Numbered from the stretch's first letter, positions 3,921 through 47,700 are shown. The stretch is 64,000 bases of DNA from an uncultured Chryseobacterium sp. (GCA_966211705.1 CBIHOC010000024.1:9319-73318), one strand, 5' to 3'. A program made the numbers and translations. The notes: generated by a model from the sequence alone, not told the origin.

Positions 3921-4024
3921 AACCACTGAGAGCACAGAGGAAGTTTCACAGAGAGGCACAGAGGATTTTCTCAGTGTCCTCTGTGTTAACAGGTAGTGGT
4001 CATCCTCTGTGACCTCAGTGGTTT
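3921..4024. terminator. Long imperfect palindrome (aaccactgag...ctcagtggtt, inner cacagagg x3 / cctctgtg x2) between convergent genes. Putative bidirectional terminator and a member of the word-repeat palindrome family.
   Basis: Inverted repeats read directly in the sequence between the PorP stop (3838) and the minus-strand gene stop (4027). Confidence 0.45.
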
Positions 4025-4026
4025 TG

Positions 4027-4536
4027 TTAAGTTTTCGGTTGCTTGTACACCGGCACCGTCGAGCACGGTTCGCCGTACATGATGCTTTTCACCACCGGCC
4101 GCAATTTCCGTGTGAGTTCGATATACGCCGTTTTCGGAACGGGTTTGTCGCCGCAGCCTTTGATCACCACGCGCGCGTCGCGGTAAGGTTCGATGTCGAA
4201 TTTTGAAAGCACTTCTTCGAAGAGCACGGTCTCGAGAACTTCCGTTGTACCGAAAACAATTTTTCTCGCGAACGGCTCGAGTGCGGAAGCGAGCAGCATC
4301 CATGCCCAGTCGGGAATGATCGCGTCGGCGGAGCAGGTGAGCGCGACGTACTTGTCTTTGTATTGCGACCAGTCGTGCGTTTTGATGAATTCCCGGAAAT
4401 CTTTTTCACGCAGGATCAATCCCTGGAAGAGCTGGTCTTTGATGTCGAGCAGCACGCGTTCGCCGGGAGGATAAAGCTCCCCGAGGTCAATGGTGACCAG
4501 GCCGCTGTTGGCTACTTTATTGACGATGTCTTCCAT
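4027..4536 (-). CDS. DUF2480-family protein, commonly found beside suf genes in Bacteroidota
   Basis: The track ORF 4027..4599 is trimmed to the internal ATG at 4536 (MEDIVNKV...). The family call rests on recollection of the suf-neighbourhood DUF2480; there are no catalytic motifs. Confidence 0.5.
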   Translation of the reverse strand: MEDIVNKVANSGLVTIDLGELYPPGERVLLDIKDQLFQGLILREKDFREFIKTHDWSQYKDKYVALTCSADAIIPDWAWMLLASALEPFARKIVFGTTEVLETVLFEEVLSKFDIEPYRDARVVIKGCGDKPVPKTAYIELTRKLRPVVKSIMYGEPCSTVPVYKQPKT

Positions 4537-4622
4537 GTGGAGGGACGTTGAGGGACGGGGGGCGTGGGACGGAAGATGATCGAATTTCTCATGTCTCACG
4601 TCTCATGTCTCACGTCTGTTTT

Positions 4623-4952
4623 TTACATAAATCCAAGTTCGAGCTGGGCGACTTCGCTCATCATTTCTTTTTCCCAGGGCGGCTCGAAAGTGATTTCGAC
4701 TTTGACCGATTTGACACCTTCAACGTCTTTCACTTTCATTTCCACGTCGGAGGGCAATGATTCGGCGGCGGGACAATTCGGGGACGTGAGCGTCATGATG
4801 ACCTTCACGTCGTTCTCTTCGTTGACGTTGATCTCGTAGATGAGCCCGAGCTCCCAGATGTCGACGGGGATTTCCGGGTCATAGCACATCTTGATCGCGT
4901 CGATGACCTTTTGCGCGAGCTCAGCGTTTTGGGATATAATAATAGCCGGCAT
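4623..4952 (-). CDS. SUF-system Fe-S assembly protein of the DUF59 / MIP18 (SufT-like) family
   Basis: MPAIIISQNAELAQKVIDAIKMCYDPEIPVDIWELGLIY...LTSPNCPAAE is a DUF59 signature. Start refined to the ATG at 4952. Confidence 0.75.
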   Translation of the reverse strand: MPAIIISQNAELAQKVIDAIKMCYDPEIPVDIWELGLIYEINVNEENDVKVIMTLTSPNCPAAESLPSDVEMKVKDVEGVKSVKVEITFEPPWEKEMMSEVAQLELGFM

Positions 4953-4964
4953 ATTTTTTTCGAA

Positions 4965-5040
4965 GTCTCCGCGTCCTCCGCGCCGCTGCGGCAAAAAATC
5001 AAGGATGAAATTTGCCGCAGAGGCGCAGGGAGCGCAGAGG
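4965..5040. repeat. Intergenic palindromic element (cctccgcgccgctgcggcaaaaaa...tttgccgcagaggcgcagggagcgcagagg) between sufE and the DUF59 gene
   Basis: Inverted repeat seen in the sequence. Shares the core ctgcggcaaaaaa / gccgca(a/g)aggcgcag with the element at 9768-9832. Confidence 0.4.
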
Positions 5041-5043
5041 TGT

Positions 5044-5463
5044 TTATGTTTTTGAACTCAATGCCAAAGCATCCATTTTCATTTGTTTCACCATCGACAG
5101 CAGGCCGTTGGAGCGGGTGGGCGAGAGGTGCTCTTTCAGACCGATCCTGTCGATGAACATGAGCGGCGCGTCCACGATCTCTTTCGGCGGATGGCCGGAA
5201 AGCACGCGCACCATCAGCGCCACCATTCCTTTCGTGATGATCGCGTCGCTGTCGGCGTGGTAAATGACTTTCCCGTCCTCCAGCTCCGTGTACAGCCACA
5301 CGCGGCTCTGGCAGCCTTTGATGAGGCGGTCGTCCGTTTTGTACCGCTCGTCCAGCGGCGGTAACGATTTCCCCAGGTCGATAATATACTGGTACTTATC
5401 GTCCCACTGGTCGAACATGGAAAACTCGTCCACGATTTCCGCTTCTGTTTCCGCGATGGTCAT
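5044..5463 (-). CDS. sufE: Cysteine desulfuration sulfur-acceptor protein SufE
   Basis: SufE motif LIKGCQSRVWL with the conserved Cys, 139 aa, located in the suf operon. Confidence 0.85.
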   Translation of the reverse strand: MTIAETEAEIVDEFSMFDQWDDKYQYIIDLGKSLPPLDERYKTDDRLIKGCQSRVWLYTELEDGKVIYHADSDAIITKGMVALMVRVLSGHPPKEIVDAPLMFIDRIGLKEHLSPTRSNGLLSMVKQMKMDALALSSKT

Positions 5464-5464
5464 T

Positions 5465-6004
5465 TTACTCCTGGAATAAAACGATTTCGTGCACTTTCAT
5501 TTTTATTGCTTTGTTCTTCGCCTTTTCTGAGATCGGGTATTTTGCCTCGACCGGGACGATGAATTTAATTCCGTCATATTGCTTGATCATGGTGACGCCA
5601 GTGGAATACCATGCGACATCGCCGTACTTATCAACAACGTCCTGCATCGTGGAAACATCCGGAACAATTCCTTTATCCGAAACACCGTTAAACGGGTGGC
5701 GTACGTGGATCGCAAAGAAGACGTCTTTGCCGGGCTTTGAGTAAAAAGAAAGTCCGAGTTTTTCGTATCGCTGCTGGACGGAATAGAGCGTGTCGCTGCC
5801 GTCGGACTTTTTGATATAGTGACTGATCAACTTGAAATCGTCACCATATTTCAGTGTCACCTCCGTGCGGGTTGTTTGCCCGAGGATGACCTCATTGTCG
5901 ATTCCTTTTCCCGGAACCAGCTGGTGCTGCTCTTCCGCCATGAAGGATAAGAAAGAAACGGCTGCGATGAAAAGCAGGAGCGTGCTGAGGAGAGCCTTTT
6001 TCAC
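5465..6004 (-). CDS. Hypothetical secreted protein embedded in the suf operon
   Basis: N-terminal signal peptide MKKALLSTLLLFIAAVSFLSF and no recognised domain. Overlaps neighbours by 1-4 nt, as in an operon. Confidence 0.5.
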   Translation of the reverse strand: MKKALLSTLLLFIAAVSFLSFMAEEQHQLVPGKGIDNEVILGQTTRTEVTLKYGDDFKLISHYIKKSDGSDTLYSVQQRYEKLGLSFYSKPGKDVFFAIHVRHPFNGVSDKGIVPDVSTMQDVVDKYGDVAWYSTGVTMIKQYDGIKFIVPVEAKYPISEKAKNKAIKMKVHEIVLFQE

Positions 6005-7245
6005 GATAACATTTTAATCGCTTTTTTCAAAGCGGTGATGAATACGTCGATCTCTTCTTTTGTATTGTAAAGCGCGAATGAAATGCGGACCGTTCCCGGA
6101 ACCTGGAAACATTCCATCAGCGGCTGCGTGCAATGATGCCCCGTGCGCACCGCCACGCCCTGCTGGTCGAGGATCGTGCCCACGTCGAAAGGATGAAGAT
6201 TTCCCACGACGAACGAGATCACGCCTGCTTTTTCTTTTGCCGCGCCGATGAAACGAATGCCTTCGATCTGCGACAATTGCTCCGTCGCGTAGGCCAGCAG
6301 CGCATGCTCGTGCGCCGCGATGTTTTCCATGCCGATGTTGTCCACGTAATCCAGCGCCGCCGCCATGCCGATCGTGCCTTCGATGTTCGGCGTGCCGCCT
6401 TCGAATTTCAGCGGGCCTTCGACGTAGACCGTTTTGATGAACGAAACGGTTTTGATCGTTCCTCCCCCGGCCTGGTAGGGAAGCATGTCGTTGACCAGCT
6501 CGCCTTTTGCATACAGCGCGCCGATGCCGGTGGGGCCGTACACTTTGTGCGCGGAGAAGCAGTAAAAATCGCAGCCGAGGTCGCGAACGTTCACCGGCAA
6601 ATGCGGGACCGCCTGCGCGCCGTCGATGAGGACGGGAATGTTGTGCGCGTGCGCCAGCTCCACCAATTCTTTCACAGGATTGACCGTGCCGAGCGTGTTG
6701 GAAACGTGCGTGAACGCAAACAGTTTTGTTTTCGGTGAAAGCATTCGCTCCACCGCGGAAAGTTCGAGCTCGCCGTTTTGATTTACGGGAACGTAACGCA
6801 GGTTCGCGCCGCGTTCCTCGCACAGCTGCTGCCAGGGAAGGATGTTGGAGTGATGTTCCATCTCCGTCACCAGCACGTCGTCGCCGGGGTTGAGGCGGAG
6901 GCGGAGGAAAGAATGCGCGACGAGGTTGATGCTTTCGGTGGTGCCGCGCGTGAAAATAATTTCGTCGGGTGAAGCTGCGCCGAGGTGACGCTGCACGGTG
7001 GCGCGTGCGTCTTCGTAAGCTTTCGAAGCTTCCTGGCTGAGCGTGTGCACGCCGCGGTGGATGTTGGCGTTGTAGCGGGAATAATAATCGACGATCGAAT
7101 CGATGACGGCTTTCGGTTTCTGCGTGGTGGCGCCGTTGTCGAAATACACGAGCGGTTTCCCGTGCACCGTGCGCGAAAGAATGGGGAAGTCGGCGCGGAC
7201 GCTGTTCGCTAGGAGTTTATCGTGTATGGAGGTCGACGGGATCAT
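6001..7245 (-). CDS. sufS: Cysteine desulfurase SufS (class V aminotransferase, group II)
   Basis: HRGVHTLSQEA..., PLP-lysine region FSAHKVYGPTGIGALY, C-terminal RTGHHCTQPLM with the active-site Cys. 414 aa. Confidence 0.9.
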   Translation of the reverse strand: MIPSTSIHDKLLANSVRADFPILSRTVHGKPLVYFDNGATTQKPKAVIDSIVDYYSRYNANIHRGVHTLSQEASKAYEDARATVQRHLGAASPDEIIFTRGTTESINLVAHSFLRLRLNPGDDVLVTEMEHHSNILPWQQLCEERGANLRYVPVNQNGELELSAVERMLSPKTKLFAFTHVSNTLGTVNPVKELVELAHAHNIPVLIDGAQAVPHLPVNVRDLGCDFYCFSAHKVYGPTGIGALYAKGELVNDMLPYQAGGGTIKTVSFIKTVYVEGPLKFEGGTPNIEGTIGMAAALDYVDNIGMENIAAHEHALLAYATEQLSQIEGIRFIGAAKEKAGVISFVVGNLHPFDVGTILDQQGVAVRTGHHCTQPLMECFQVPGTVRISFALYNTKEEIDVFITALKKAIKMLS

Positions 7246-7694
7246 GAAGGAAGCAGTGCTTTCGGGATGGAATTTTTTGCAAGAAGAATTCCTTCGGACG
7301 GCATGGCAAAATCAAAATGCGGGTTCAGTGTGGCGTGCAGCTCGATGGAGTAATAACGCGTGAGCCCTTTCTGCAGCGGGCGAACGGAGCCTTCAGCGGC
7401 GATAAGTTCTTCGGAAACGGCGAACGTGGAAATTTCCCCGTTGCCGTGGCTGAAGCGGTAAACACGCATGCCGGGGATCGTGAATTCAAATTCTTCTTCC
7501 GTCGTCAGGAATTTTCCCCTCATCACGTATTCCCCGTTCACGTCCTCTTCGATCTTCAGCACCTCTTCCATTTCATAACCGACTGCCCAGGAAAAGCGCA
7601 TGTTGTTCTCGCTTTCCATGCCATTATTATTTTCATCCGCATATGCCTGGCTGAAATCCGGGTTGGCGATTGAAAATTTGATCGTGACGTTCAT
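7242..7694 (-). CDS. Hypothetical acidic protein between sufD and sufS
   Basis: 150-aa ORF, translationally coupled on both sides (4-nt overlaps). No signal peptide and no known motifs. Confidence 0.45.
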   Translation of the reverse strand: MNVTIKFSIANPDFSQAYADENNNGMESENNMRFSWAVGYEMEEVLKIEEDVNGEYVMRGKFLTTEEEFEFTIPGMRVYRFSHGNGEISTFAVSEELIAAEGSVRPLQKGLTRYYSIELHATLNPHFDFAMPSEGILLAKNSIPKALLPS

Positions 7695-8992
7695 TTGAGC
7701 AGGTCGTCAATGCGTTTGTCGATGTATTCCCGCAACGCATCGATCTTTACGTGGTTCACCACTTCTTCCGCAAACGCGCGGATGAGCAGCGCGTGGGCAT
7801 CTTCTTTGCCGATGCCGCGTGAGCGAAGATAGAACAGCGATTCCTCGTCGATGCGGCCGGTGGAAGTTCCGTGCGAGCACTTCACGTCGTCGGCGTAGAT
7901 CTCGAGCTGCGGCTTCGTGTTCACCGTTGCGTCGTCGCTGAGAAGAATGTTGCGGTTGGTCTGGAATGCGTTCGTTTTCTGCGCGTCGGGGCGGACGAAA
8001 ATTTTGCCGTTGAATACCGCCGTTGCTTTCCCGCTGATGACGCCTTTGTACAGCTCGTTGCTCATGCAGCCGGGAACCTTGTGGTCGACGACCGTATGGT
8101 TGTCCGCAACCTGCGTTCCATCGAGCAGGTACAACCCGAACAAATGCGCTTCCCCGTTCCTGCCGCTCATCACGACTTCGAGGTTGTTGCGCACCCACGT
8201 GCCGCCGAGGATGAATGTGTACGTATTGTACAGCGCGTTCGCGGCGACATCCGCCTGCACGGTGCTGAGCAATTGGCCGGATTCTCCGCCTTCCTGGATG
8301 CGGTAATGGTCGAGCTTCCCGCCGGGAGCAATGGCGATCTCCGCCAGCGCGTTGTTGAAGGAACGCACCGGGCCGATCGTTTCGAACGATTCGATGATCG
8401 TCGCCTGCGCGTTTTCTTCGATCACGACGAGGTTGCGCGGCTGGAAAAAAGCTTCGGTCTCGTTGTCGGTAATGTGAAGCAGGTGGAACGGTTTTTCAGC
8501 CACGGCATTTTTCGCGGCATGGATGAACACGCCGCCTTCGTTCAGCGCGGTGTTCAGCGCAGCGAACGGGTCTTTGTCCACCGGCGTAAATTTCGCGTAA
8601 TGCTGCTGCGCGCGCTTGTCTGACGCAACGGCATCGGCGATGCTGTTTACCGTTACGCCCGCAGGCAATTCGTCCTTCGAAGAAAGTTCCGGCACGAAGA
8701 TGCCGTTGACGATCACCAGCACGTGCGCCTCCTTCACGATCACCAGCTTTTCAATATCCGAAGCGGCGATGCCGCGCATCAGTTCCGTGCGGAAGCCGAG
8801 CTCTTTTTTGAAGAGCGTGTCGGGGGCGATGTATTTGTAATCTTCGGAACGCCGCGTGGGAAAGCCGTTCTCCGAAAAGAAACGCGCCGCATCCTTGCGC
8901 AGGGCCGCATCGCCGTAAAGCGAAGGAAGACGCTGCGTGAAATGCGCGAGAAGCTGTTCTTTAAATGTCGTTTTTTCTGCCGTGGTGCTCAT
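7691..8992 (-). CDS. sufD: Fe-S cluster assembly protein SufD
   Basis: 433 aa in the SufB/SufD family (C-terminal beta-helix region ...GTSTGRIDEESLFYLRSRGI). Lies between sufC and sufS. Confidence 0.85.
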   Translation of the reverse strand: MSTTAEKTTFKEQLLAHFTQRLPSLYGDAALRKDAARFFSENGFPTRRSEDYKYIAPDTLFKKELGFRTELMRGIAASDIEKLVIVKEAHVLVIVNGIFVPELSSKDELPAGVTVNSIADAVASDKRAQQHYAKFTPVDKDPFAALNTALNEGGVFIHAAKNAVAEKPFHLLHITDNETEAFFQPRNLVVIEENAQATIIESFETIGPVRSFNNALAEIAIAPGGKLDHYRIQEGGESGQLLSTVQADVAANALYNTYTFILGGTWVRNNLEVVMSGRNGEAHLFGLYLLDGTQVADNHTVVDHKVPGCMSNELYKGVISGKATAVFNGKIFVRPDAQKTNAFQTNRNILLSDDATVNTKPQLEIYADDVKCSHGTSTGRIDEESLFYLRSRGIGKEDAHALLIRAFAEEVVNHVKIDALREYIDKRIDDLLK

Positions 8993-8995
8993 ACG

Positions 8996-9751
<756 letters not shown>

Positions 9752-9767
9752 AGTTCTTTGCGATAAA

Positions 9768-9832
9768 CTCTGCGCTCTCTGCGCCTCTGCGGCAAAAAAA
9801 TGTTCGCCGCAAAGGCGCAGAGGACGCGGAGG
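9768..9832. repeat. Intergenic palindromic element (ctctgcgctctctgcgcctctgcggcaaaaaaa...gccgcaaaggcgcagaggacgcggagg) between sufB and sufC
   Basis: Inverted repeat read in the sequence and related to the 4965-5040 element. Located inside the operon, not at its end. Confidence 0.4.
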
Positions 9833-9835
9833 ATT

Positions 9836-11299
9836 TTAGCCTACGCTGCCTTCCAGGGAGACAGACAATAATTTCTGCGCTTCGACGGCGAATTCCATCG
9901 GGAGCTGGTTTAATACTTCGCGGCAATACCCGTTCACGATAAGCCCGATCGCCTTTTCCGTGTCGATGCCGCGCTGGTTGCAGTAGAAGATCTGGTCTTC
10001 GCCGATCTTGGATGTCGTGGCTTCGTGTTCCACCACCGCGCTCTTGTCGTGGATCTCGATGTACGGAAACGTGTGCGCGCCGCATTTGTCGCCCATCAGC
10101 AACGAGTCGCACTGGGAGAAATTGCGCGCGTTCGATGCGCCTTTGGCAATGCGGACGAGACCGCGGTAGCTGTTGTTGCTCTTGCCGGCGGAAATCCCTT
10201 TCGAGATGATCGTGCTGCGCGTGTTGCGGCCGAGGTGGATCATCTTCGTGCCGGTGTCGGCCTGCTGCATGTTGTTCGTGACGGCCACGGAATAAAATTC
10301 ACCGACGGAATTATCGCCCTTGAGGATCACCGACGGATATTTCCACGTGATGGCTGAGCCGGTTTCGACCTGCGTCCAGGAAATTTTGGAGTTCGCGCCG
10401 AGGCAGATGCCGCGTTTGGTGACGAAGTTGTAGATGCCGCCTTTGCCTTCTTTGTCGCCGGGATACCAGTTCTGCACGGTGGAATATTTCACCTCCGCAT
10501 TTTCCAGCGCCACAATTTCCACCACTGCGGCGTGCAGCTGGTTCTCGTCGCGTTTCGGGGCGGTGCAGCCTTCGAGGTAGCTCACGTATGCGCCGTCTTC
10601 GGCCACGATGAGCGTGCGTTCGAACTGGCCGGTGCCGGCGGAATTGATCCGGAAATACGTGCTCAGCTCCATCGGGCAGCGAACGCCTTTCGGGATGAAA
10701 CAAAATGATCCGTCGCTGAACACGGCGGAATTGAGCGCGGCGTAATAGTTATCGGTGTAAGGCACGACCGAGCCCATGTATTTTTTGATCAGTTCGGGAT
10801 GTTCCTGCACGGCTTCGCTGAACGAGCAGAAGATGATGCCTTTTTCAGCAAGCACTTCCTTGAATGTCGTTTTCACCGAAACGCTGTCGATGACGGCATC
10901 CACGGCGATCTTCGATTCCATTCCCACGAGACGTTTCTGCTCTTCGAGTGAAATGCCGAGCTTCTCGAACGTTCTGCGCAGCTCGGGATCGACCTCGTCC
11001 ATGCTCGCCACCGTTTTGGATTTTTTCGGCGCGGCGTAATAGCTGATGCCCTGGAAATCGATTTCGGGATAATAGATGTGCGCCCAGTGACGGGGCTCTT
11101 CCATTTTCAGCCAGTGACGAAACGCTTTAAGCCTGAACTCGAGCATCCATTCCGGTTCGTTCTTTTTTGCCGAGATAAACCGCACGATGTCCTCGTTCAG
11201 TCCCATCGGCGCAAATTCCGTATCGATATCGGAAACGAATCCGTATTTGTATTCGCCCTGCGTGAATTCTTCTAATATGCTGTCCTGTTCGGATGACAT
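9836..11299 (-). CDS. sufB: Fe-S cluster assembly protein SufB
   Basis: 487 aa with a highly conserved SufB core (...[28 protein letters not shown]...). Confidence 0.95.
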
Positions 11300-11325
11300 T
11301 TAATTCCTGTTAACTGTGTCGCACA

Positions 11326-11652
11326 CTACACCGAAAAGCTTTCCCCGCAGCCGCACGTCCGCGACGCATTCGGGTTGACGAATACGAACCCTTTCCCGTT
11401 CAGCCCCGTGGTATAATCCAGCTCGGTGCCGACGAGGTAGAGGAAACTCTTTTTATCGACAACGATCTTGATCCCTTTGTCTTCGAACACCTGGTCCGTC
11501 GGCTGGAGGTTATTGTCGAACTCGAGCTTGTAAGACAGGCCGGAGCATCCCCCGCTTTCCACGCCTACACGTATAAATGTATCTGCCGGGCGGTTTTCCT
11601 CCTTAATCAAGGTAATTGCCCTGTCCCGGGCATTTTCAGTTACGGTGATCAT
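11326..11652 (-). CDS. sufA: A-type Fe-S carrier (HesB/IscA/SufA family)
   Basis: 108 aa with a GGCSG motif and a C-terminal CGCGESF, the three-Cys signature of A-type carriers. First gene of the suf operon. Confidence 0.8.
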   Translation of the reverse strand: MITVTENARDRAITLIKEENRPADTFIRVGVESGGCSGLSYKLEFDNNLQPTDQVFEDKGIKIVVDKKSFLYLVGTELDYTTGLNGKGFVFVNPNASRTCGCGESFSV

Positions 11653-11657
11653 TGGTT

Positions 11658-11678
11658 TTCAGTATTTTATATTCTGAA
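11658..11678 (-). promoter_or_regulatory. Imperfect palindrome TTCAGTATTTTATATTCTGAA immediately upstream of the sufA start codon. Candidate operator for an Fe-S- or iron-responsive regulator.
   Basis: Dyad symmetry seen in the sequence 6-26 nt upstream of the sufA ATG. No binding data. Confidence 0.3.
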
Positions 11679-11799
11679 ACTTATTTAGACTAAATCTAAA
11701 TTCAGTACAAAAATACCTACTTTTTGGTAGTCCGCCAAACGGAATGAACAGGAAATGAACAGGAGCAGATCACCCCTGTCAAGGTTAAGAAGATAAAAA

Positions 11800-12912: not shown

Positions 12913-12919
12913 CTCACGT

Positions 12920-13369: not shown

Positions 13370-13372
13370 GGG

Positions 13373-15067: not shown

Positions 15068-16111
15068 ATGCTTGACAACCAATCGAAAACAGAACTTTCC
15101 CGCCTCGGCGAATTCGGACTTATCCGTCACCTTACTTCTGCCATTGAGCTGAAGAACCCGTCATCGCTGAAAGGCGTGGGCGACGACGCCGCCGTGATCG
15201 ACTACGGCGGACCGAAGGTGAGCGTCGTTTCCACCGACATGCTGGTGGAAGGCGTTCACTTCGACCTTGCTTATGTTCCCCTGCGGCACCTCGGCTATAA
15301 GGCCGCCATTGTAAATTTCTCCGACATCTACGCCATGAACGCGCAGCCGAAGCAGCTGCTCGTGTCGATCGCGATCTCCAGCAAATTCCCGCTCGACGCG
15401 GTGGAGGAATTGTATTCCGGGTTATTGCTTGCCTGTGAACGTTACGGCGTCGACCTCGTGGGCGGCGATACCACTTCCTCGCAGATGGGCATGGTGATCT
15501 CCTGCACCGCGATCGGGGAAGGAGAGAAAGAAAAGCTGGCGTACCGCAACGGCGCAAAAGAAAAAAACCTGCTCTGCGTTTCCGGCGATCTCGGCGGCGC
15601 TTACATGGGGCTGCTCCTGCTCGAGCGTGAAAAAGAAGTGTTCAAATCCGACCCGAAGATCCAGCCCGACCTGGAAGGCAACGATTACATTCTCGAGCGC
15701 CAGCTCAAACCCGAAGCCCGTCCCGATGTGATCCAGATGCTGAACGACCTGGGCATCAGACCGACTTCGATGATCGACGTGTCCGACGGGCTTGCCTCCG
15801 AGCTGCTTCACATCTGCGACCAGTCGAACGTGGGCGCGCAGCTTTACGAAGAAAAAATTCCCATCGACCCGATGACGTACAACCGCGCGCGGGAATTCAA
15901 CCTCGACCCGACCATGTGCGCGCTGAGCGGCGGTGAAGATTACGAGCTGCTGTTCACGATCGACATGAACGATTACGAAAAGCTGAAGAACAACGCCGAC
16001 ATCACGGTCATCGGCCACATCACCGCGAAAGAATCAGGCGTGAACATGGTCTCGAAATCGAACACGGTTCACCCGGTGACGGCGCAGGGATGGGATGCGT
16101 TGAGAAAATAA
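15068..16111 (+). CDS. thiL: Thiamine-monophosphate kinase ThiL
   Basis: GEFGLIRHL...GVGDDAAVID...VSTDMLVEGVHF...GYKAAIVNFSDIYAMNAQP...LVGGDTT, an AIR-synthase-related fold with ThiL motifs. Start refined to the ATG at 15068 (track ORF begins at 15023). Confidence 0.8.
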   Translation: MLDNQSKTELSRLGEFGLIRHLTSAIELKNPSSLKGVGDDAAVIDYGGPKVSVVSTDMLVEGVHFDLAYVPLRHLGYKAAIVNFSDIYAMNAQPKQLLVSIAISSKFPLDAVEELYSGLLLACERYGVDLVGGDTTSSQMGMVISCTAIGEGEKEKLAYRNGAKEKNLLCVSGDLGGAYMGLLLLEREKEVFKSDPKIQPDLEGNDYILERQLKPEARPDVIQMLNDLGIRPTSMIDVSDGLASELLHICDQSNVGAQLYEEKIPIDPMTYNRAREFNLDPTMCALSGGEDYELLFTIDMNDYEKLKNNADITVIGHITAKESGVNMVSKSNTVHPVTAQGWDALRK

Positions 16112-16138
16112 ATTGTAGGTGCACGATGCATCGTGCAC

Positions 16139-16501
16139 CTACAATTTCGAATCGGTAACGACCATTGTCCCGATCGGCCCTTTTTGTATGATCTTCTTCC
16201 CCTTCTTTTTTGCTTTTTTGTAGAGGCGAACGGTGAATGTCTGTTCCTCTTTTCCTTTCAGCAGCGAGCTGAATTCCGCGCTCTCGCCGACGCCGCGCCT
16301 GACGCAGTCGCCCGACTGGTCGTAAATTTCATAGGAGACTTCCTGGCTGAATACGAGCTTGTGCTTTTCGCTGTCGTAATTAGCCGTGTAGGTTTTTCCC
16401 TGCACTTTGAACGTCGCGGAGTTCGTTGCGGCATCCTGGGCGGAAAGGAAATGGGCCGGGAGGCAGAACAGCAAAAGGAGAAGCAGCTTTTTCATGGTCA
16501 A
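16139..16501 (-). CDS. Hypothetical small secreted protein
   Basis: Signal peptide MTMKKLLLLLLFCLPAHFLSAQ. 120 aa, no known domain. Confidence 0.5.
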   Translation of the reverse strand: MTMKKLLLLLLFCLPAHFLSAQDAATNSATFKVQGKTYTANYDSEKHKLVFSQEVSYEIYDQSGDCVRRGVGESAEFSSLLKGKEEQTFTVRLYKKAKKKGKKIIQKGPIGTMVVTDSKL

Positions 16502-16564: not shown

Positions 16565-16765
16565 AAAAGAATTCTCACCGGGAAACCAATTTCCATCTGC
16601 CAGGAATTTCTTTGTGCCTTCGTGCCTTTGTGGCTTTCATTCTTATCGATCCGGCGAGGAAATTTCAACCTTCAAAAACGACATTCTCAGTGAGAGAAAA
16701 TTAATAATGCCACAAAGACACGAAGGCACAAAGGCTTTTCACCGGGGAAACCAATTTCCATCCAC
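16565..16765. repeat. Composite repeat element: 24-nt direct repeats (tcaccggg[g]aaaccaatttccatc at ~16574 and ~16741) flanking a 25-nt inverted repeat (ctttgtgccttcgtgcctttgtggc / gccacaaagacacgaaggcacaaag)
   Basis: Read directly in the sequence. Non-coding gap between two minus-strand genes. The architecture resembles a MITE or cassette-like element, or a large structured RNA. Confidence 0.45.
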
Positions 16766-21963: not shown

Positions 21964-22713
21964 ATGATCAATGCTGTAATTGTTGAAGATGAAAAGAAAA
22001 GCCGCGAAGTGCTCGAGGCGCTGGTAAAAACCAACTGCCCCGAAGTGAACCTCGTCGGCAGCGCGGATTCCGTGGCCGGCGGCGTTGATCTCATCCGCAA
22101 AACCAATCCCCGCCTCGTGTTCCTCGACATCGAGATGGCCGACGGCAGCGGGTTCGACCTGCTCGAGCAGGTGCCCAACACCGGCTTCGAGGTGATCTTC
22201 ACCACCGCTTCCGACGCGCATGCCCTGCGCGCCATCAAGTACAGCGCGATCGATTATCTCCTCAAGCCGATCGACGCCGACGAGCTGAAAGCGGCGGTGG
22301 AAAAGATCAAAACCAGGCAGACGGTAAACGAGAACCTCGAAAATCTGAAATTCCTCCTGCAGAATTTCCGCCGCCCGAACGAGCAGTACACCAAGATCAC
22401 GCTGCCCACCGGGAATGCATACGAGATCGTGAATGTGAAAGACATCATCCGCTGCGAAGCCGACGGCAGCTACACGAGCTTCTTCCTCGAGAACAAAAAG
22501 AAGCTGCTCGTTTCCGCCAGCCTCAAGCATTACGAGGATCTTCTCCCGCCCGACGATTTTATCCGCGTGCACCATCACCACCTCATCAACATGAGCCACG
22601 TCGTACGTTTCCTGAAAACCGACGGAGGCTACGCCGTGATGAGCGACGGCACACAGATCGAAATTTCCCGCCGCAAAAAAGACGCATTCATCCAGCGGCT
22701 GAATAAGATCTGA
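21964..22713 (+). CDS. LytTR-family DNA-binding response regulator
   Basis: Receiver INAVIVEDEKKSREVL...VFLDIEMADGSGFDLL plus a C-terminal LytTR domain. 249 aa, adjacent to its kinase. Confidence 0.9.
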   Translation: MINAVIVEDEKKSREVLEALVKTNCPEVNLVGSADSVAGGVDLIRKTNPRLVFLDIEMADGSGFDLLEQVPNTGFEVIFTTASDAHALRAIKYSAIDYLLKPIDADELKAAVEKIKTRQTVNENLENLKFLLQNFRRPNEQYTKITLPTGNAYEIVNVKDIIRCEADGSYTSFFLENKKKLLVSASLKHYEDLLPPDDFIRVHHHHLINMSHVVRFLKTDGGYAVMSDGTQIEISRRKKDAFIQRLNKI

Positions 22714-22771
22714 AATTCAAAGATTCAAACGTCTCGTCATGCATGACGAGACTATTCAAAGATTCAAAGAT

Positions 22772-22803
22772 TCGGATTGGCTGAGGTCAATCCGATTTTT
22801 TTT
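22772..22803 (+). terminator. Rho-independent terminator (tcggattggctgaggtcaatccga followed by TTTTTTTT)
   Basis: GC-rich hairpin plus T-run 60 nt downstream of the LytTR stop. It lies inside a larger palindromic block (22717-22890) built from ttcaaagattcaaa words and the perfect palindrome gtctcgtcatgcatgacgagac. Confidence 0.6.
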
Positions 22804-23321
22804 GCCCTGTCGCGATACTATTTGAATTTTGAATCTTTGAATAACAAGGCTCGTCGGAGACGAGACGAGTGATTGAATTTTTGAATTCGTGACACTTCTC
22901 TGACAATACGCGCTTCAGGAAAACTCCGCTCATCCGGCGCTTTCGCCACTTATACCAATTTCGTTTCCGGTTACCGCATGCGCTCAGCCACCTGTTAAAA
23001 GTGACTATCCTTTCCGTGTTTACAAGCGTAATATTGAATGGAAATCAGCTACAGGAATAGAATACGCTGATCGACAGGAAATCCGCTCATTGAAAAGCTG
23101 CTTTAAAAAAGAAAAGAGAAAAAGGCCCTGAGCCTTTGGGGTGCAACCGGATAGCTGACGTATTCGGGGATGTTGCGTCTACCGTTCGGTTCACCCTGCT
23201 CTTTCTTTCAAAATAATTCTGTAACGAAATCCAGCTGCGACGTTATAGAACAAAGAAGGAAGTCCGCTCTTCGGCAAGCAACGCGGGCAGTGAAGTCAAA
23301 ACCCCTATAAAATTGAGTGCC

Positions 23322-23439
23322 ATGAAAAAGGTAACCCATCGGAAAGGCCACCAGTATCACATCGACGGCCTCGGCACCATCAGCATCATTTTCGGAATTG
23401 CATGCGTTGGTTTTATTATCTATAATGTTTGTCATGTGA
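23322..23439 (+). CDS. Candidate 39-aa small protein (MKKVTHRKGHQYHIDGLGTISIIFGIACVGFIIYNVCHV) with a hydrophobic C-terminal helix
   Basis: Below the ORF-track threshold. ATG..TGA is in frame and is followed 20 nt later by a hairpin + TTTT terminator. No homology assessable. Confidence 0.3.
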
Positions 23440-23460
23440 TTTTTTCCTGAGTGTGTGTGG

Positions 23461-23504
23461 AACCCCGGTCCTGTTTTTAACCCCAAGGGACCGGGGTTTT
23501 CTAA
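23461..23504 (+). terminator. Hairpin aaccccggtcc...ggaccgggg + tttt
   Basis: Perfect 9-bp GC stem followed by a T-run, downstream of the candidate small ORF. Confidence 0.5.
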
Positions 23505-23546
23505 AAAGTAACTCCAGGTTGCGCTGCAGCCGTCTCAATAAGAATG

Positions 23547-23573
23547 ACCCGTCCCGTAAGACGGGTTTTTTTC
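23547..23573 (+). terminator. Rho-independent terminator acccgtcccgtaagacgggt + ttttttt
   Basis: Classic stem-loop with a T7 run, 45 nt upstream of the next gene. Confidence 0.55.
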
Positions 23574-23619
23574 TTCGGAACAGCACAATGTATCCATCAT
23601 CCACTTGTTTACCTGACCT

Positions 23620-26629: not shown

Positions 26630-26915
26630 GCGGCTAAGTTAATTCATCTGCAGGGTTCACCTGAAACTTTTAGAGACTGTTTAAGATTCATCTTTCAAAA
26701 TGCTTATGCGTCTTTTTGCACCATACTTCGTTGTCCTTCTTGACCAGATTCTCTCCGATATGGCCTGCGAAGGACGCCTCGTCTGGCACAAAAATCCCCT
26801 TATAATCATTTCGAAATCTAAATCTTAAACAGTCTCTTAGTGGAGCGAGAATAATTTCCTGGCGATTAAACCTTTGGCGTGTTTCCCTGTCTTATGCAGG
26901 ATAACCGATGTCCCC

Positions 26916-41037: not shown

Positions 41038-41232
41038 CAACTCTATTTAGAATCATTTCGAATAAGCCCCATTTTGCTGAAATTCAGTGAGCTTCCTCAT
41101 AATTCCGGAAAATTTCTTCCCCCTGTAAACTTGATACAACCCTGCACGGTGAGTACATTTGTCCCCGCCTGCCGGTTTCCGAATCCCATTTAAATCATCG
41201 CCGGCGGAGACACGTCTAATCTCGTTCGGTAT

Positions 41233-41925
41233 ATGACCAAATTCCTCACCTCCTCCATCGGCAAAAAAACGGTGATGGCCCTTTCCGGCCTGTTCCTTAT
41301 CCTTTTCCTGCTGGAGCACCTGTACACCAACGTACATCTTTTCTTCGGCGACGGCGGCGAAGAATTCAACGAAATGTCTCACTCCATGGTGCGCATGATC
41401 ATCATCCGCATCATCGAGATCGTCCTCTTCCTCGCCATCGTGGTCCACGTGGCGCAGGCCATCCTGCTCACCCGCGAGAACGCACAGGCCCGCCCGATCA
41501 AATACGCCATCAACCGCACCGACCAGACGAGCGTGTGGATCTCCCGCAACATGGGCTTCACGGGGAGCGTCATATTCTTCTTTATCGTAGTTCACCTCTG
41601 GCAGTTCTTCCTGCCTTACCGCGTCACCGGCACCGTCGGTGCGGAAGGACATGAAACGCTGGCCCAGGAAGTGGTCGAAGCGCTGGAAAACCCGCTTTAC
41701 GCCGGCATTTACCTCGTGTCGGTTATTTCCCTTGCCTTCCACCTCAGCCACGCGCTGCAGTCGGCCGCGCAAACGCTCGGGGTCAACAACAAAAAATACG
41801 CGCCCCTGTGGCACAAGCTTTCCATGGGCCTCGCATGGCTGATGGGCATCGGCTTCGGCTCTTTCCCGGTCCTGTTCTACGGCGCGAAGCTGCTGAACAA
41901 AGACCTCCTGAACTGGGCGATGTAA
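41233..41925 (+). CDS. sdhC: Succinate dehydrogenase / fumarate reductase cytochrome b subunit, b558 family
   Basis: 230 aa and five TM helices with conserved His ligands, directly upstream of sdhA and sdhB as in Bacteroidota. Confidence 0.85.
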   Translation: MTKFLTSSIGKKTVMALSGLFLILFLLEHLYTNVHLFFGDGGEEFNEMSHSMVRMIIIRIIEIVLFLAIVVHVAQAILLTRENAQARPIKYAINRTDQTSVWISRNMGFTGSVIFFFIVVHLWQFFLPYRVTGTVGAEGHETLAQEVVEALENPLYAGIYLVSVISLAFHLSHALQSAAQTLGVNNKKYAPLWHKLSMGLAWLMGIGFGSFPVLFYGAKLLNKDLLNWAM

Positions 41926-42019
41926 AAATGAAAAAGCAAAACTCAAAACTCCAAATGCCCAAAATGTCGGGCGCTACACGTTTGAGATTTGAACGTTTGA
42001 ATTTTTTGAAATTTCAACT

Positions 42020-43996
<1,977 letters not shown>

Positions 43997-43997
43997 A

Positions 43998-44062
43998 ACC
44001 CTCCGTGCCTCCGTGTCTCCGTGGTGAAAGATCGTCAACCACGGAGACACGGAGGCACGGAG
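43998..44062. repeat. Near-perfect 25-nt inverted repeat (ctccgtgcctccgtgtctccgtggt / accacggagacacggaggcacggag) between sdhA and sdhB
   Basis: Read directly in the sequence. Intra-operon hairpin and a member of the word-repeat palindrome family. Confidence 0.5.
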
Positions 44063-44079
44063 AAAAACAACAGCGTATC

Positions 44080-44823
44080 ATGAATCTCACGCTCAAAGTC
44101 TGGAGACAGAAAAACGCGAACGACAAAGGCGGGTTCACCACCTACAAGGTGAATGACATTTCCCCCGACATGTCTTTCCTCGAAATGTTCGACGTGCTCA
44201 ACGAGCGCCTCATCAGCGAAGGACAGGAACCCATTGCGTTCGACCACGACTGCCGCGAAGGCATTTGCGGCATGTGCAGCATGTTCATCAACGGTCGTGC
44301 GCACGGTCCGCAGCGCGCCACCACCACCTGCCAGCTGCACATGCGCCAGTTCAAAGACGGAGACACGATCACCGTTGAGCCCTGGCGCGCCAAATCGTTC
44401 CCGGTGATCAAGGACCTCGTCGTGGACCGCACCGCGTTCGACAAGATCCAGTCTGCCGGCGGTTTTGTTTCCGTCAACACCGGCAACGCGCAGGATGCGA
44501 ACTGCCTTCCCATTCCGAAGACCGACGCCGACAAGTCATTCGCTGCTGCGGCCTGCATCGGCTGCGGGGCCTGCGTGGCTGCGTGCAAGAACGCTTCCGC
44601 CATGCTGTTCGTTTCCGCCAAAATTTCCCAGTACGCCCTCCTTCCCCAGGGACAGGTCGAGCGCGTGGACCGCGCGCTGAACATGGTGAAGGAAATGGAC
44701 GCGATGGGCTTCGGCAATTGCACGAACACCGGTTCCTGCGAAGCTGCCTGCCCGAAGGAAATTTCGCTGGAAAATATCGCGACGATGAACCGCGAATATA
44801 TTATGGCGAATTTGAAGAAGTAA
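44080..44823 (+). CDS. sdhB: Succinate dehydrogenase / fumarate reductase iron-sulfur subunit
   Basis: 2Fe-2[11 protein letters not shown] and 4Fe-4S/3Fe-4[12 protein letters not shown]...[12 protein letters not shown] cysteine clusters. Start refined to MNLTLKVW at 44080. Confidence 0.9.
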
Positions 44824-45370
44824 TTGTTCGGAAAAATTTTGTGGAAGCCATCCTGCAGGAATGCGGGGTGGCTTTTGTGTTTTCAAAGGTGTCGAATTCT
44901 GCCCCTTTGAAATCATTATTCAGTTGCGATCAAAAAACCGTTCAGTTCAAATGTGGCGAAATCGCTGTAATTAAATAACCCGTCGAATTCGACGGGTTTA
45001 AAATCTCGCTCTGTTGTTTAATAAACTCAGCCAGTCGTTCTTGTAATGCTGCTTGCCCGCAATCGAGGGCTCTTCCTCTCTCAGCACTCATAAAAACTGT
45101 CGCGCCGATATGATTTATTGGTGACCAGATAATTCCTTCCCGGGCTTCTCCCCATTCCGGGAGGAAAAATCCCCATCGTGGAAAAATTCCCCATTCTTTT
45201 TAATTCGCTGGGCGGATGGACGGATGCCCGGGAAGCGCTTACCGGCTTTGGGCTTTTCAGAATTATTTACAAATGAAAACCGCTGTAATCCAAGCGGAAA
45301 ACAGCGGTTGTATAGTTATATCCCGCAAAAATCATTCCTTTTTTCAATTATTGTGTAATTTGGTAGCAAT

Positions 45371-46852
45371 ATGCTCAGGCAAGGACTACACCAGAAGTTA
45401 TTACAGAAGCTGTCGCCACAGCAGATCCAGTTGATGAAGCTGCTGCAGCTGCCCACGGTGGCGCTGGAACAACGCATCAAGGAAGAGCTGGAAGTGAACC
45501 CTGCGCTTGAAGAAGGCGAGGAGAGCAGCGAAGAGGATAAAAAAGACGAGATCGACGAGGACGACGACGGGCTGTTCGAAGACGGTGCGGAAGGTGATGA
45601 TGAAAAAGAATCGGTCAAGGACGAAGACTTCGCGCTCGGCGATTACATGGACGAGGACGAAGGTTATTCGTACCGCGAGCATGTGAACAACAGCAGTCCC
45701 GACGACGAGCGCCGCGAAATGCCGCTCTCGCAGGGCCCCGGCTTCCACGACCAGCTCCTCAGCCAGCTTGGCCTCCAGCCCATCGACGACCACCAGTACC
45801 AGGTGGCTTCGTACCTCATCGGCAACATGGACGAGGACGGCTACATGCGCCGCGAGCTGGGCGCGATCGTCGACGACATTGCATTCTCACAGAATATCAC
45901 CACGACGGAAGAAGAGCTGAAGGAATTGCTCGGGCTCATCCAGACGTTCGATCCCCCGGGCGTGGGCGCGCGCGACCTGCAGGAATGCCTGCTGCTGCAG
46001 CTCCAGCGGAAAAACCCGAAGACGCCGGAAGTGGTGCTCGCCATGCGCGTGGTGCAGGAGCACATGGAAGAGTTTTCAAAAAAACATTACGATAAAATTT
46101 CCCGCCGCCTCGGCATCGACGACGAATCGCTCAAGCGCGTGATCCGTGAAGTGACGCATCTCAATCCCCGCCCGGGCAGCTCCGCGATCGACTCCGCGCG
46201 CTCCGTGCAGGATGTCGTTCCCGATTTTATCGTGAGCAATTCCGACGGCAAGCTCGACCTCACGCTGAACGAACGCAACATGCCCGAGCTGCGCGTGAGC
46301 GGGATGTATTCCAACATGCTGCAGGAATATGCGCGCAGCAAAGACAAGAGCAGCAAAGAGGCCGTCAACTTCATCAAGCAGAAGATCGACTCCGCGAAAT
46401 GGTTCATGGACGCCCTTCGCCAGCGCCAGCAAACATTGCTGCTGACGATGGAAGCGATCATGGAATACCAATATGAATATTTCCTGGAAGGCGACGAGAC
46501 GAAGCTGCGCCCGATGATCCTCAAGGATATCGCGGACCGCGTGGGGCTCGACATTTCCACCGTTTCCCGCGTGGCGAACAGCAAATACGTGCAGACACAA
46601 TTCGGCACGTTCCTCCTCAAAAGCTTTTTCTCCGAATCGCTTTCCACCGACAGCGGTGAAGAAGTGTCGACGCGCGAAGTGAAGAAAATTCTTTCCGACT
46701 GCATCGCCGCCGAAGACAAGCGCCGCCCGCTCACCGACGACCGCCTGGCGAAGATCCTCAAGGACAAAGGATACAACATCGCGCGCCGCACCGTTGCCAA
46801 ATACCGCGAGCAGCTCGACATCCCGGTGGCGCGACTGCGCAAGGAGCTCTGA
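45371..46852 (+). CDS. rpoN: RNA polymerase sigma-54 factor
   Basis: N-terminal Gln/Leu-rich activator-interacting region, acidic linker, core-binding domain, HTH and C-terminal RpoN box ARRTVAKYREQLDIP. 493 aa. Confidence 0.95.
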   Translation: MLRQGLHQKLLQKLSPQQIQLMKLLQLPTVALEQRIKEELEVNPALEEGEESSEEDKKDEIDEDDDGLFEDGAEGDDEKESVKDEDFALGDYMDEDEGYSYREHVNNSSPDDERREMPLSQGPGFHDQLLSQLGLQPIDDHQYQVASYLIGNMDEDGYMRRELGAIVDDIAFSQNITTTEEELKELLGLIQTFDPPGVGARDLQECLLLQLQRKNPKTPEVVLAMRVVQEHMEEFSKKHYDKISRRLGIDDESLKRVIREVTHLNPRPGSSAIDSARSVQDVVPDFIVSNSDGKLDLTLNERNMPELRVSGMYSNMLQEYARSKDKSSKEAVNFIKQKIDSAKWFMDALRQRQQTLLLTMEAIMEYQYEYFLEGDETKLRPMILKDIADRVGLDISTVSRVANSKYVQTQFGTFLLKSFFSESLSTDSGEEVSTREVKKILSDCIAAEDKRRPLTDDRLAKILKDKGYNIARRTVAKYREQLDIPVARLRKEL

Positions 46853-46870
46853 GCGTAAAAAACCAAAACA

Positions 46871-46917
46871 AAAATTCCAAATCCCAAAGCAGCTGCGATT
46901 TTGGGATTTGGAATTTT
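46871..46917 (+). terminator. Hairpin aaaattccaaatcccaaa-gcagctgcga-ttttgggatttggaatttt downstream of rpoN
   Basis: 18-bp inverted repeat with a T-rich 3' flank, 19 nt after the rpoN stop. A/T-rich stem, so the terminator call is moderate. Confidence 0.5.
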
Positions 46918-46945
46918 GAGCTTTGTATTTTTTTGAGACCTGCTT

Positions 46946-47557
46946 TTGACTGTGAAAATTACTTCTTTAACCCTCTCCGTAATTCTTCACCCCATGCTGA
47001 TGGTGACGTACGCCGCCGCCATCTTCCTGTTCGTGCTCCCTTCCGATTTCCAGCCCGTTTCGCCGGGGCTGCCGTGGAAGATCCTCGGCCTGCTCTTCAT
47101 CAGCACCGTGCTCATGCCGCTTACGTTCGTATTCATGATGCTGCGTATGGGACGCATCGACACCATGCAGATGGAACGGCAAAAGGAACGCAACTGGCCC
47201 CTGCTCACCACGGCGATGATCTACGCCGGCGGTTATTACGCGATCCGCTCCAGGGCGGTGCCCGATTTTATCCAGCTCTTTCTTCTCGGCGCGGTGATCG
47301 GCATGCTGCTCGCGCTGGTCGTGAACCTGAAATGGAAGATCAGCCTGCACATGATCGGCATCGGCGGGTTGTGCGGGGGAATTACAGCCGCGCTCATGCT
47401 GGGCATCGACGGAAGCCCGTGGCTGGTCGCCGGATGTTTTCTTGCGGCAGGATTGCTCGGCACGGCGCGCCTGTACCTTCATGCGCATTCGCCCGTGCAG
47501 GTGCTCGCCGGTTTCCTTGCAGGATTTGCCGTGGAGTTTGGACTGATGATGATGTAA
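46946..47557 (+). CDS. Polytopic membrane protein, possibly PAP2-like
   Basis: About 6 TM helices. SLH and R-x5-H-x3-Q resemble PAP2 motifs C2/C3, but the third-motif Asp is replaced. Tentative. Confidence 0.4.
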   Translation: MTVKITSLTLSVILHPMLMVTYAAAIFLFVLPSDFQPVSPGLPWKILGLLFISTVLMPLTFVFMMLRMGRIDTMQMERQKERNWPLLTTAMIYAGGYYAIRSRAVPDFIQLFLLGAVIGMLLALVVNLKWKISLHMIGIGGLCGGITAALMLGIDGSPWLVAGCFLAAGLLGTARLYLHAHSPVQVLAGFLAGFAVEFGLMMM

Positions 47558-47562
47558 AGGGT

Positions 47563-47700
47563 GCGAATTACGAATCGCTGCGAATCTACGAATTACGAAT
47601 CGCTGGCGGAATGCTATGCCCTCAAAGGGTTGCGCGCAGCCATGCGCACCGGCAACCCTTTGAGGGTTTAGCATTCGTATCCGGAAAGAAATCGTAAATC
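47563..47700. repeat. Palindromic/repeat block (gcgaattacgaatcgct x2, gccctcaaagggttgc...ggcaaccctttgagggt, cgaatgctatgcc / ttagcattcg)
   Basis: Direct and inverted repeats seen in the sequence between convergent genes. Confidence 0.35.

Follow-up and report, generated by a model that had tools for sequence, protein, structure and literature searches.

Word-built palindromes in intergenic spacers of an uncultured Chryseobacterium: candidate transcribed, fast-evolving stem-loops

A 64,000-nt stretch of DNA from an uncultured Chryseobacterium sp. (GCA_966211705.1 CBIHOC010000024.1:9319-73318, here called the window) carries in its intergenic spacers long palindromes whose arms are arrays of short iterated words, and this raises the question of whether such elements are ordinary terminators, mobile DNA, protein-binding sites or something else. 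An earlier note on this DNA had proposed at least eight of them, each locus using a different word and several lying inside operons, and had likened them to repetitive extragenic palindromes and bacterial interspersed mosaic elements (REP/BIME). All nine sites that it listed do hold dyad-symmetric elements of iterated words, and with a tenth that it missed (E2, 4538-4620) such elements are found in ten spacers (E1 to E10). We see it as about evenly balanced whether they are, as we favour, transcribed and fast-evolving stem-loops of the kind known from short tandemly repeated repetitive (STRR) sequences, REP/BIME and intervening sequences (IVSs), built by slippage and inverted copying, which would serve as terminators at operon ends where a T-tract is present and as RNA processing or stability elements inside operons.

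The earlier note had named inverted-repeat scoring against chance as a result that could refute its claim, and the claim withstood it: when ungapped inverted repeats with loops of at most 120 nt were counted, 8 scored at least 14 in the window, compared to a mean of 0.1 and a maximum of 1 in 20 dinucleotide shuffles, and 7 scored at least 16, compared to none in the shuffles. RNA folding measured against 200 shuffles gave z-scores of -7.5 for E1 (interval 3912-4032), -7.6 for E3 (4953-5043), -9.1 for E4 (9752-9835), -7.8 for E5 (16600-16745), -6.0 for E6 (22712-22860), -11.4 for E8 (43997-44080), -4.6 for E9 (46853-46952) and -7.5 for E10 (47558-47700). Two of the sites listed earlier have to be qualified, since the one at 41926-42015 (E7) forms a weak hairpin in spite of its two opposed word arrays (sense z -1.6, not significant) and the words of E10 stand outside its strong stem (47609-47676); the remaining ones have z-scores of -4.6 to -11.4. 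In E5, E6 and E8, ungapped word periodicity is significant (autocorrelation of 0.82-0.88 for period 8; p ≤0.002 by shuffling). In E1, E3 and E4, spacings of 8 and 9 alternate, and the words therefore escape this measure, while Tandem Repeats Finder (TRF) detects arrays in E2, E4, E5, E6, E7, E8 and E10. A simple terminator scan returned 18 hits, not far from the 12.5 expected from shuffles, its loop limit of 3-8 nt excluding the present elements, and a scan of the whole window at Rfam gathering thresholds gave no family and no rRNA.

These elements are also present in DNA assembled independently. Illumina contigs from the same organism have spacer lengths at E1 to E3 identical to those of the window, which rules out an assembly artefact, and CRISPR arrays were discarded as a candidate since unique spacers of constant length are missing. 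Two further contigs of the same organism from an Illumina metagenome (L081 and L082, with identical SdhA) end a few bases into E8, their last ~70 nt being G-rich junk, so that the E8 hairpin seems to stop short-read sequencing or assembly. Because short-read assemblies break at hairpins of this kind, such elements are likely under-represented in metagenome-assembled genomes (MAGs).

The genome is that of a member of the Bacteroidota by its Pfam content (PorP/SprF of the type IX secretion system, T9SS, and Por_Secre_tail domains; ~55% G+C in the window), and no SufB in the species-level genome collection comes nearer to that of the window than 86% identity. Pfam searches also gave the gene order iscA-sufB-sufC-sufD-(ORF)-sufS-(ORF)-sufE-DUF59-DUF2480 on the minus strand, where ORF denotes an open reading frame, and sdhC-sdhA-sdhB and rpoN on the plus strand. 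They agree with the earlier placing of elements inside operons, in the sufB/sufC, sufE/DUF59, sdhA/sdhB and sdhC/sdhA spacers, and five or six elements are so placed. All ten lie 3' of a gene: those inside operons start 4-5 nt past the stop codon and end 2-18 nt short of the next start, while E1, E5 and E10 lie between convergent genes. Divergent promoter spacers hold 0 of the 10 elements where ~1.7 were expected, a shortfall that is not significant at n=10.

Inside the suf operon, E4 (9768-9831, minus strand) is a hairpin of CTCTGCG/CGCAGAG words that begins 4 nt past the stop codon of sufB and leaves 16 nt free before sufC starts, and E3 (4967-5039, minus strand), made of CCTCTGCG/CGCAGAGG words, occupies the 91-nt sufE/DUF59 spacer from 4 nt past the sufE stop to 14 nt before the DUF59 start, folds at -52.2 kcal/mol and has no T-tract on its sense strand. 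In the DUF59/DUF2480 spacer, E2 (minus strand) sets a (GGGACG)n array opposite a (CGTCTCA/TGTCTCA)4 array as read on the plus strand, or (GAGACRT)4 ... (CGTCCC)4 in the gene sense (TRF period 14, 100%), and it pairs well solely on the antisense plus strand, via G-U pairs (z -5.1 and -39.8 kcal/mol vs -2.7 and -19.6 kcal/mol on the sense strand). Inside the sdh operon, on the plus strand, E8 (44001-44062, sdhA/sdhB spacer) is a perfect 25-bp hairpin, (CTCCGTGN)3 / (NCACGGAG)3, that starts 5 nt past the stop and ends 18 nt before the sdhB ATG (44081), with A-rich flanks, no T-tract and a fold of 25/25 bp at -56.8 kcal/mol, and E7 (41937-42015, sdhC/sdhA spacer) opposes an AAAACTC/AAACTCC array to a TTTGAGA/TTTGAAC/TTTGAAT array.

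In the spacer between the convergent genes for PorP (plus) and DUF2480 (minus), with the second of which the suf operon ends, E1 (3919-4025) is a composite hairpin built from CACAGAGG/CACTGAG words together with their complements, and it is terminator-like because AAAA stands upstream and TTTT(T) downstream. E9 (46857-46931, plus strand, rpoN/PAP2-like spacer) is a hairpin of AAATTCC/AAATCCC words whose core (46871-46917) pairs perfectly over 18 bp, with A-rich sequence on its 5' side and T-rich sequence on its 3' side. E6 (22715-22890, plus strand), 3' of a LytTR regulator gene, consists of ATTCAAAG/CTTTGAAT word arrays that enclose two inner hairpins, one of which (~22770-22803) reads as a terminator since its canonical stem is followed by T8. 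Between convergent genes, E5 (16566-16756, hairpin 16610-16733) is made of CTTTGTGC/GCACAAAG words, 26 of the 28 positions of its arms (16610-16637 and 16706-16733) being paired, and folds with a z of -7.8 on the minus and -6.4 on the plus strand. A direct repeat of ~25 nt, TCACCGGGAAACCAATTT... or in full TCACCGGG(G)AAACCAATTTCCATC, stands on either side of this hairpin, with copies at 16566-16592 and 16730-16756, too long for an ordinary target-site duplication and each partly self-complementary. E10 (47563-47700, plus strand), also between convergent genes, combines a CGAATTA/CGAATCG direct array (47563-47605), its hairpin (47609-47676, stem without periodicity) and ATTCG-type words, the words being confined to the flanks. 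The AT-rich elements E6, E7 and E9 have the theme TTTGRRN / NYYCAAA in common.

A U-tract thus directly follows the stem on the transcribed strand in E1, E9 and the inner hairpin of E6, and does not in E2, E3, E4, E7 and E8; in E3, E4 and E8, the sequence next to the stem on the sense strand is A-rich, not T-rich. The earlier statement that the elements are not simply terminators therefore stands for E3, E4 and E8, which are not ordinary terminators as no T-tract follows their stems, but not for E1, E9, the E6 inner hairpin and the E1 site of the sister species L139, which are terminator-like with A/T tracts typical of bidirectional terminators.

Whether each locus really uses a word of its own was a further point, and it turned out to be only partly right. 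The words of E1, E3/E4, E5 and E8 (CACAGAGG, CGCAGAGG, CACAAAGG and CACGGAGG) are transition variants of a single octamer, CCTYYGYG/CRCRRAGG, so that five GC-rich elements draw on one word family. When the minus strand of E3 is compared with the plus strand of E4, the two are 84% identical overall and agree at 34 of 35 positions in one arm, with unrelated loops, and we therefore consider them dispersed copies in opposite orientation within one operon. The same words recur elsewhere: in a Chitinophagaceae MAG (L011), the GC-rich words occur at 4 places, including 2 hairpins in its sufB/sufC spacer, and form a BIME-like tandem cluster of at least 4 hairpin units of ~97 nt; in a Flavobacteriales MAG (L037), they occupy the iscA/sufB and sufD/sufS spacers; and they are likewise present in a Bacteroides MAG (L058).

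Comparison with orthologous intergenic regions, which the earlier note had also called for, showed that the same spacers hold different contents in sister species. A search with DUF2480 identified two of these, L138 and L139, with 98% identical DUF2480 and coding DNA 88-92% identical to that of the window, while for the sdhA and rpoN loci, the closest relatives (78-91% protein identity) are too distant for most elements. At the E3 site, where the window has a full hairpin, the L138 spacer is 6 nt long and lacks the element, and L139 keeps the outermost left and right words alone, CCTCTGCGCTC next to CGCAAAGAC, exactly the 56-nt interior being missing. The E2 site of L139 has a direct (CYTTGCG)3 array alone, from the E3/E4 word family, and that of L138 has one arm in common with the window, the other arm being (TCTCAAG)4. 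At the operon end, the E1 site is occupied in L139 by an A6-(CACGGAG)3 hairpin-T9, a textbook terminator, and in L138 by an unrelated perfect 27-bp palindrome; a conventional hairpin beside this site, ACGAAAAGCTCC...GGAGCCTTTCGT, is kept in the window, L138 and L139.

At the other loci, the E8 orthologue of L137 (SdhA 90% identical) has an almost unaltered left arm, while in its right arm an identical set of three transitions has turned each CACGGAG word into CGCAGGG, which weakens the stem to -31.7 kcal/mol; one arm has thus evolved in concert. The sdhC/sdhA spacer of L137, where the window has E7, holds a GC-rich word element. E9 is an insertion, since the rpoN/PAP2-like spacer is only 0-3 nt long in L083, L084, L085 and L137.

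More distant relatives linked these spacers to a protein family. Their sufB/sufC spacer, orthologous to the E4 site, varies in length from 14 nt to >800 nt and contains either nothing, or direct arrays ((GTTAGTA), ~14 copies, in L010; (GAAGTAG)n in L067), or hairpins of other words (L008, L042 and L065), or an inserted gene. That gene, found in L001, L003, L004, L017 and L078, encodes a 23S-rRNA-intervening-sequence protein (IVP, or S23p; PF05635, E ~1e-38). Among the Bacteroidota loci that were retrieved, all 7 of 7 IVP genes lie in suf-operon spacers, on the operon strand and between inverted heptamer arrays, as for instance TTTAAAGTTGGAAAGTTTAAAGTTGG ... CAACTTTAAACTTTCTAACTTTAAAC in L004. 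An independent scan of viral contigs (IMG/VR) found inverted heptamer arrays around 8 of the 11 PF05635 homologues (L144, L145, L147, L148, L149, L150, L151 and L152), made of AACGTTG (4-5 copies), GGCAGAA (4-5 copies), TAGGRAA or GGAAGAA heptamers, and therefore this architecture is not limited to Bacteroidota chromosomes. Taken together, the flanks of 18 IVP genes had a median inverted-repeat score of 14, compared to 8 for 150 control genes of similar size; 13 of the 18 reached or exceeded the 95th percentile of the controls by score, and on inspection 15 of the 18 were enclosed by arrays.

Short arrays are in fact a general feature of non-coding DNA in these genomes. In 1.9 Mb of retrieved Bacteroidota loci, we counted 346 tandem arrays of period 7, 249 of period 8 and 147 of period 14 per Mb of non-coding DNA, which is 8-20 times as many as coding DNA holds per Mb, periods 5-6 being without excess. 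Two tandem inverted unit copies were found within 300 nt for 28 of the 131 non-coding arrays of 7-9-nt units, whereas reversed and complemented controls gave 7 and 2. A looser count of inverted partners (at most 1 mismatch per unit, 300 nt) does not discriminate (78 vs 67 and 64 in the reverse and complement controls). Direct arrays without an inverted partner were seen in L010, L067, L002 and the E2 site of L139.

Which known systems do these elements resemble? Their closest precedents are STRR hairpins, IVSs with or without S23p, REP/BIME and intergenic heptamer direct repeats, and by analogy the elements may work like these without being demonstrable members of any. STRR hairpins and IVSs, neither of which the earlier note took into account, are closer to them than the REP/BIME elements that it named. 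STRR heptamer hairpins sit between hupS and hupL in cyanobacteria, with a proposed role in transcript stability, translational coupling or termination (PMC2670836). As there, tandem words of ~7 nt lie here in non-coding DNA and form hairpins between co-transcribed genes (E3, E4 and E8), arrays of period 7-8 being 8-10 times enriched in non-coding DNA by TRF. STRR sequences differ in belonging to another phylum and in using other words, and both arms here are word arrays, with periods of 7-9 and mostly 8 in the GC-rich family. The words also differ from what we take to be the STRR consensus heptamers of heterocystous cyanobacteria. For STRR sequences, PMC2670836 reports neither a link to IVP genes nor a turnover between sister species, both of which are seen here.

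In Coxiella, the IVS, which RNase III excises, combines a terminal stem of 28 bp with an S23p ORF and with tandem GACAGAT heptamers, more of them in some strains than in others (PMC4990558). Like the elements studied here, which have stems of at least 20 bp, the IVSs of Coxiella, Leptospira and Salmonella have terminal inverted repeats in a long stem (~28 bp) and, at the stem or in the 5' region, tandem heptamers of variable copy number, and their optional ORF is of the Pfam family (PF05635) to which the genes between inverted arrays in the suf spacers of relatives also belong. They differ in sitting in helix 25/45 of 23S rRNA, whereas the elements lie in mRNA spacers past stop codons and have no ORF; it is because of this location between protein-coding genes that they cannot be counted as IVSs.

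Proteobacterial REP/BIME elements (and REPINs) are likewise extragenic imperfect palindromes past stop codons, often inside operons, with presence that varies between relatives and with dispersed copies and tandem clusters, as in L011. In E. coli, they affect mRNA stability, attenuation and translation of the upstream gene. They differ in having one 20-40-nt unit per arm, while the arms here are arrays of short words and the copies are far more diverse. A 5' GTAG next to the palindrome, typical of REP sequences, was found in none of the word elements, GTAGGTGCAC being confined to a separate palindrome (E12) and to L138. Pfam scans, which covered the window ORFs apart from several near its ends, revealed no transposase family and no REP-associated tyrosine transposase (RAYT). 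The REP/BIME likeness drawn by the earlier note is thus sound for position, structure, presence or absence between relatives and the L011 cluster, but not for the GTAG motif or the RAYT gene.

E12 itself, at 16110-16147, is a perfect 19-bp loopless palindrome (AAATTGTAGGTGCACGATG followed directly by CATCGTGCACCTACAATTT) that spans the end of an AIR-synthase-like gene and the start of the next ORF, and the different, perfect 27-bp palindrome at the E1 site of L138 (2115-2160) has the core GTAGGTGCRC in common with it. These two look like a second, REP-like family that contains GTAG and stands apart from the word hairpins.

Intergenic TAACTGA-type heptamer repeats are found in Beggiatoaceae, Cyanobacteria and some Bacteroidetes, near start codons, and are almost always direct, with a single indirect repeat reported (PMC4679880). 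They differ in consisting of one specific heptamer, the elements here being dyad-symmetric and made of many words. Terminal inverted repeats with a short target-site duplication, as in miniature inverted-repeat transposable elements, were also looked for, and no consistent flanking duplication was found, only the ~25-nt direct repeat of E5. In the literature that we searched, which was incomplete, we met no description of word-built palindromes in Bacteroidota or of a general enclosure of PF05635 genes by inverted heptamer arrays; searches with the words themselves returned chance matches alone, and those on REP/RAYT in Bacteroidetes and on intercistronic RNase III sites in Bacteroides returned nothing relevant.

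How might such elements arise and act? In the explanation that we favour, slipped-strand duplication and mispairing would amplify a word within one arm, while the arms would be kept complementary by copying between elements or by intrastrand template switching, a kind of mutation (quasi-palindrome correction) that is well established in E. coli, and the outcome would be concerted evolution within an element and its rapid gain, loss or replacement between species. The elements would work as RNA, a function that we infer from their anatomy and from the closest known systems: stems with A/T tracts at operon ends (E1, E9 and the E6 inner hairpin) would terminate transcription, and the 20-30-bp stems without T-tract inside operons (E2 to E4, E7 and E8) would form a barrier to 3' exonucleases or a double-stranded substrate for RNase III. 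As these stems separate cistrons that abut or overlap in relatives, they could alter the relative stability and translation of the flanking genes. Since the same architecture encloses S23p genes in the spacers of relatives, the hairpins without ORF may best be seen as the mRNA counterpart of ORF-less rRNA IVSs and of STRR hairpins.

Several observations weigh against this explanation. Neither an RNase III gene nor an IVP gene lies within the window, where a tblastn search for IVP genes found none. In a rough tally, stem mismatches comprise 12 sense G-U and 17 sense A-C, with no G-U bias and neither strand favoured throughout, and in E2, E7 and E9 the antisense strand gives the better fold, so that selection on the sense RNA is not demonstrated. 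No single element is conserved among the sister species, and such variable presence indicates that none is essential. Moreover, local slippage by itself would not lead one to expect a single word family in distant taxa and loci, and its occurrence there hints at mobility or at a factor specific to the sequence.

This last point leads to another account, which we regard as possible if rather less than probable and which does not exclude a role as RNA: the palindromes would be selfish or neutral mobile DNA of the REP/REPIN-RAYT or IVS-cassette type, spread by a trans-acting enzyme and tolerated in transcribed spacers past stop codons, with no host function. Mobility would fit the near-identical E3 and E4 with their opposite orientation and unrelated loops, the recurrence of one word family at five loci of the window, at the four L011 places with their tandem cluster and in the Flavobacteriales and Bacteroides MAGs, and an occupancy that varies between sister species, a site even passing to another family (CYTTGCG at the E2 site of L139). 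The insertion of E9 into a 0-3-nt spacer, IVP cassettes of like architecture in the same spacers, wobble pairs without strand bias, the better antisense folds and the lack of an element conserved among sisters point the same way. Against it stand the missing transposase or RAYT gene among the ORFs scanned in the window, the lack of a consistent target-site duplication and of a 5' GTAG in the word elements, and the fact that near-identical copies are the exception, a word variant of its own being found in most elements; the concerted change in one arm (L137) and the one-word minimal form (L139) rather point to local growth and shrinkage, and the operon-end copies carry terminator-like tracts. 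A broader proposal, which we hold to be doubtful, would unite the ORF-less word palindromes and the S23p/IVP cassettes in one superfamily of "mRNA intervening sequences" that insert just past stop codons in Bacteroidota operon spacers (with GGCAGAA- or AACGTTG-type heptamers in other phyla and their viruses), are excised from the transcript by RNase III in the manner of rRNA IVSs, and have their arrays bound or propagated by an Avd-like S23p pentamer.

Two further accounts fare worse. That all elements are ordinary Rho-independent terminators or attenuators with incidentally repetitive stems is very unlikely: T-tracts at E1, E9 and the E6 inner hairpin, the A6-hairpin-T9 at the suf operon end of L139 and the location of E1, E5 and E10 between convergent genes do agree with it, but E3, E4 and E8 are followed by A-rich sense sequence inside the conserved sufBCDSE and sdhCAB operons, stems of 25-30 bp are far above typical terminator length, E2 and E7 fold poorly on the sense strand, and the simple scan flags 0 of E7 to E10, partly owing to its loop limit. 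Highly improbable, in our view, is that they act as DNA, as protein-binding arrays (iteron-like operators, or sites for nucleoid or S23p-type proteins) or as structural elements that form cruciforms. Their absence from promoter spacers, their dispensability between sister species and words so different from one element to the next (GC-rich vs AT-rich) that no single binding specificity fits count against this, even though words at a regular 7-9-bp spacing, one octamer family across taxa, palindromes without strand bias and an association with genes whose product, a pentameric four-helix bundle, is a relative of Avd, which binds nucleic acids, would be expected of binding sites.

Other features of the window and its relatives were noted in passing. 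The suf operon contains two ORFs without Pfam match on the minus strand, of 179 aa between sufS and sufE (5465-6004) and of 150 aa between sufD and sufS (7242-7694), each overlapping at least one neighbour by 4 nt; the 179-aa ORF was found in the sister species L138-L141, and neither occurs in a more distant relative (contig of P0125) or in any of the 80 sufB loci. The sdhA/sdhB spacer, occupied here by E8, holds genes in three relatives (L134 7221-7436, L135 2013-2909 and L136 3323-4219), either a 71-aa ORF or one for a 298-aa protein with a weak nucleoside 2-deoxyribosyltransferase-like match, and seems to be an insertion hotspot. The interval between sdhB and rpoN includes 547 nt without convincing ORF (44824-45370), where L134 and L137 have a patatin-family gene, with one further ORF beside it in L137; this stretch may be a case of gene loss or a decayed remnant. 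A long non-coding stretch 3' of E6 (22900-23619) has canonical terminators at 23450-23500 and 23540-23575, no Rfam match, and an ORF of 45 aa (23313-23450) whose tail is hydrophobic. The longest inverted repeat of the window (26672-26837), with 36-nt arms (86% complementary) 94 nt apart, is not word-built; its spacer is a divergent one, with an alpha/beta-hydrolase gene (minus) on one side and a gene for a T9SS-tailed protein (plus) on the other, and the repeat folds far better on the minus strand (-76.6 vs -51.9 kcal/mol). Coding repeats occur as well: a 228-nt tandem repeat at 81-823 (~3 copies, 75-80% identity), which has no relation to the intergenic elements, in the first large ORF (36-2786), and an ORF of 2776 aa (48087-56417) that is likewise highly repetitive.

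The association of S23p genes with inverted arrays offers a concrete handle on what IVS proteins do and on why 7-nt repeats are over-represented in bacterial non-coding DNA, and if the proposed superfamily were real, the S23p family and bacterial heptamer repeats would share one explanation. If the explanation that we favour is right, hypervariable stem-loops would cut up many Bacteroidota operons, resetting mRNA processing, termination and translational coupling between sister species, and would thereby provide a quick and cheap way of changing gene-dosage ratios in a phylum without Shine-Dalgarno-based coupling.

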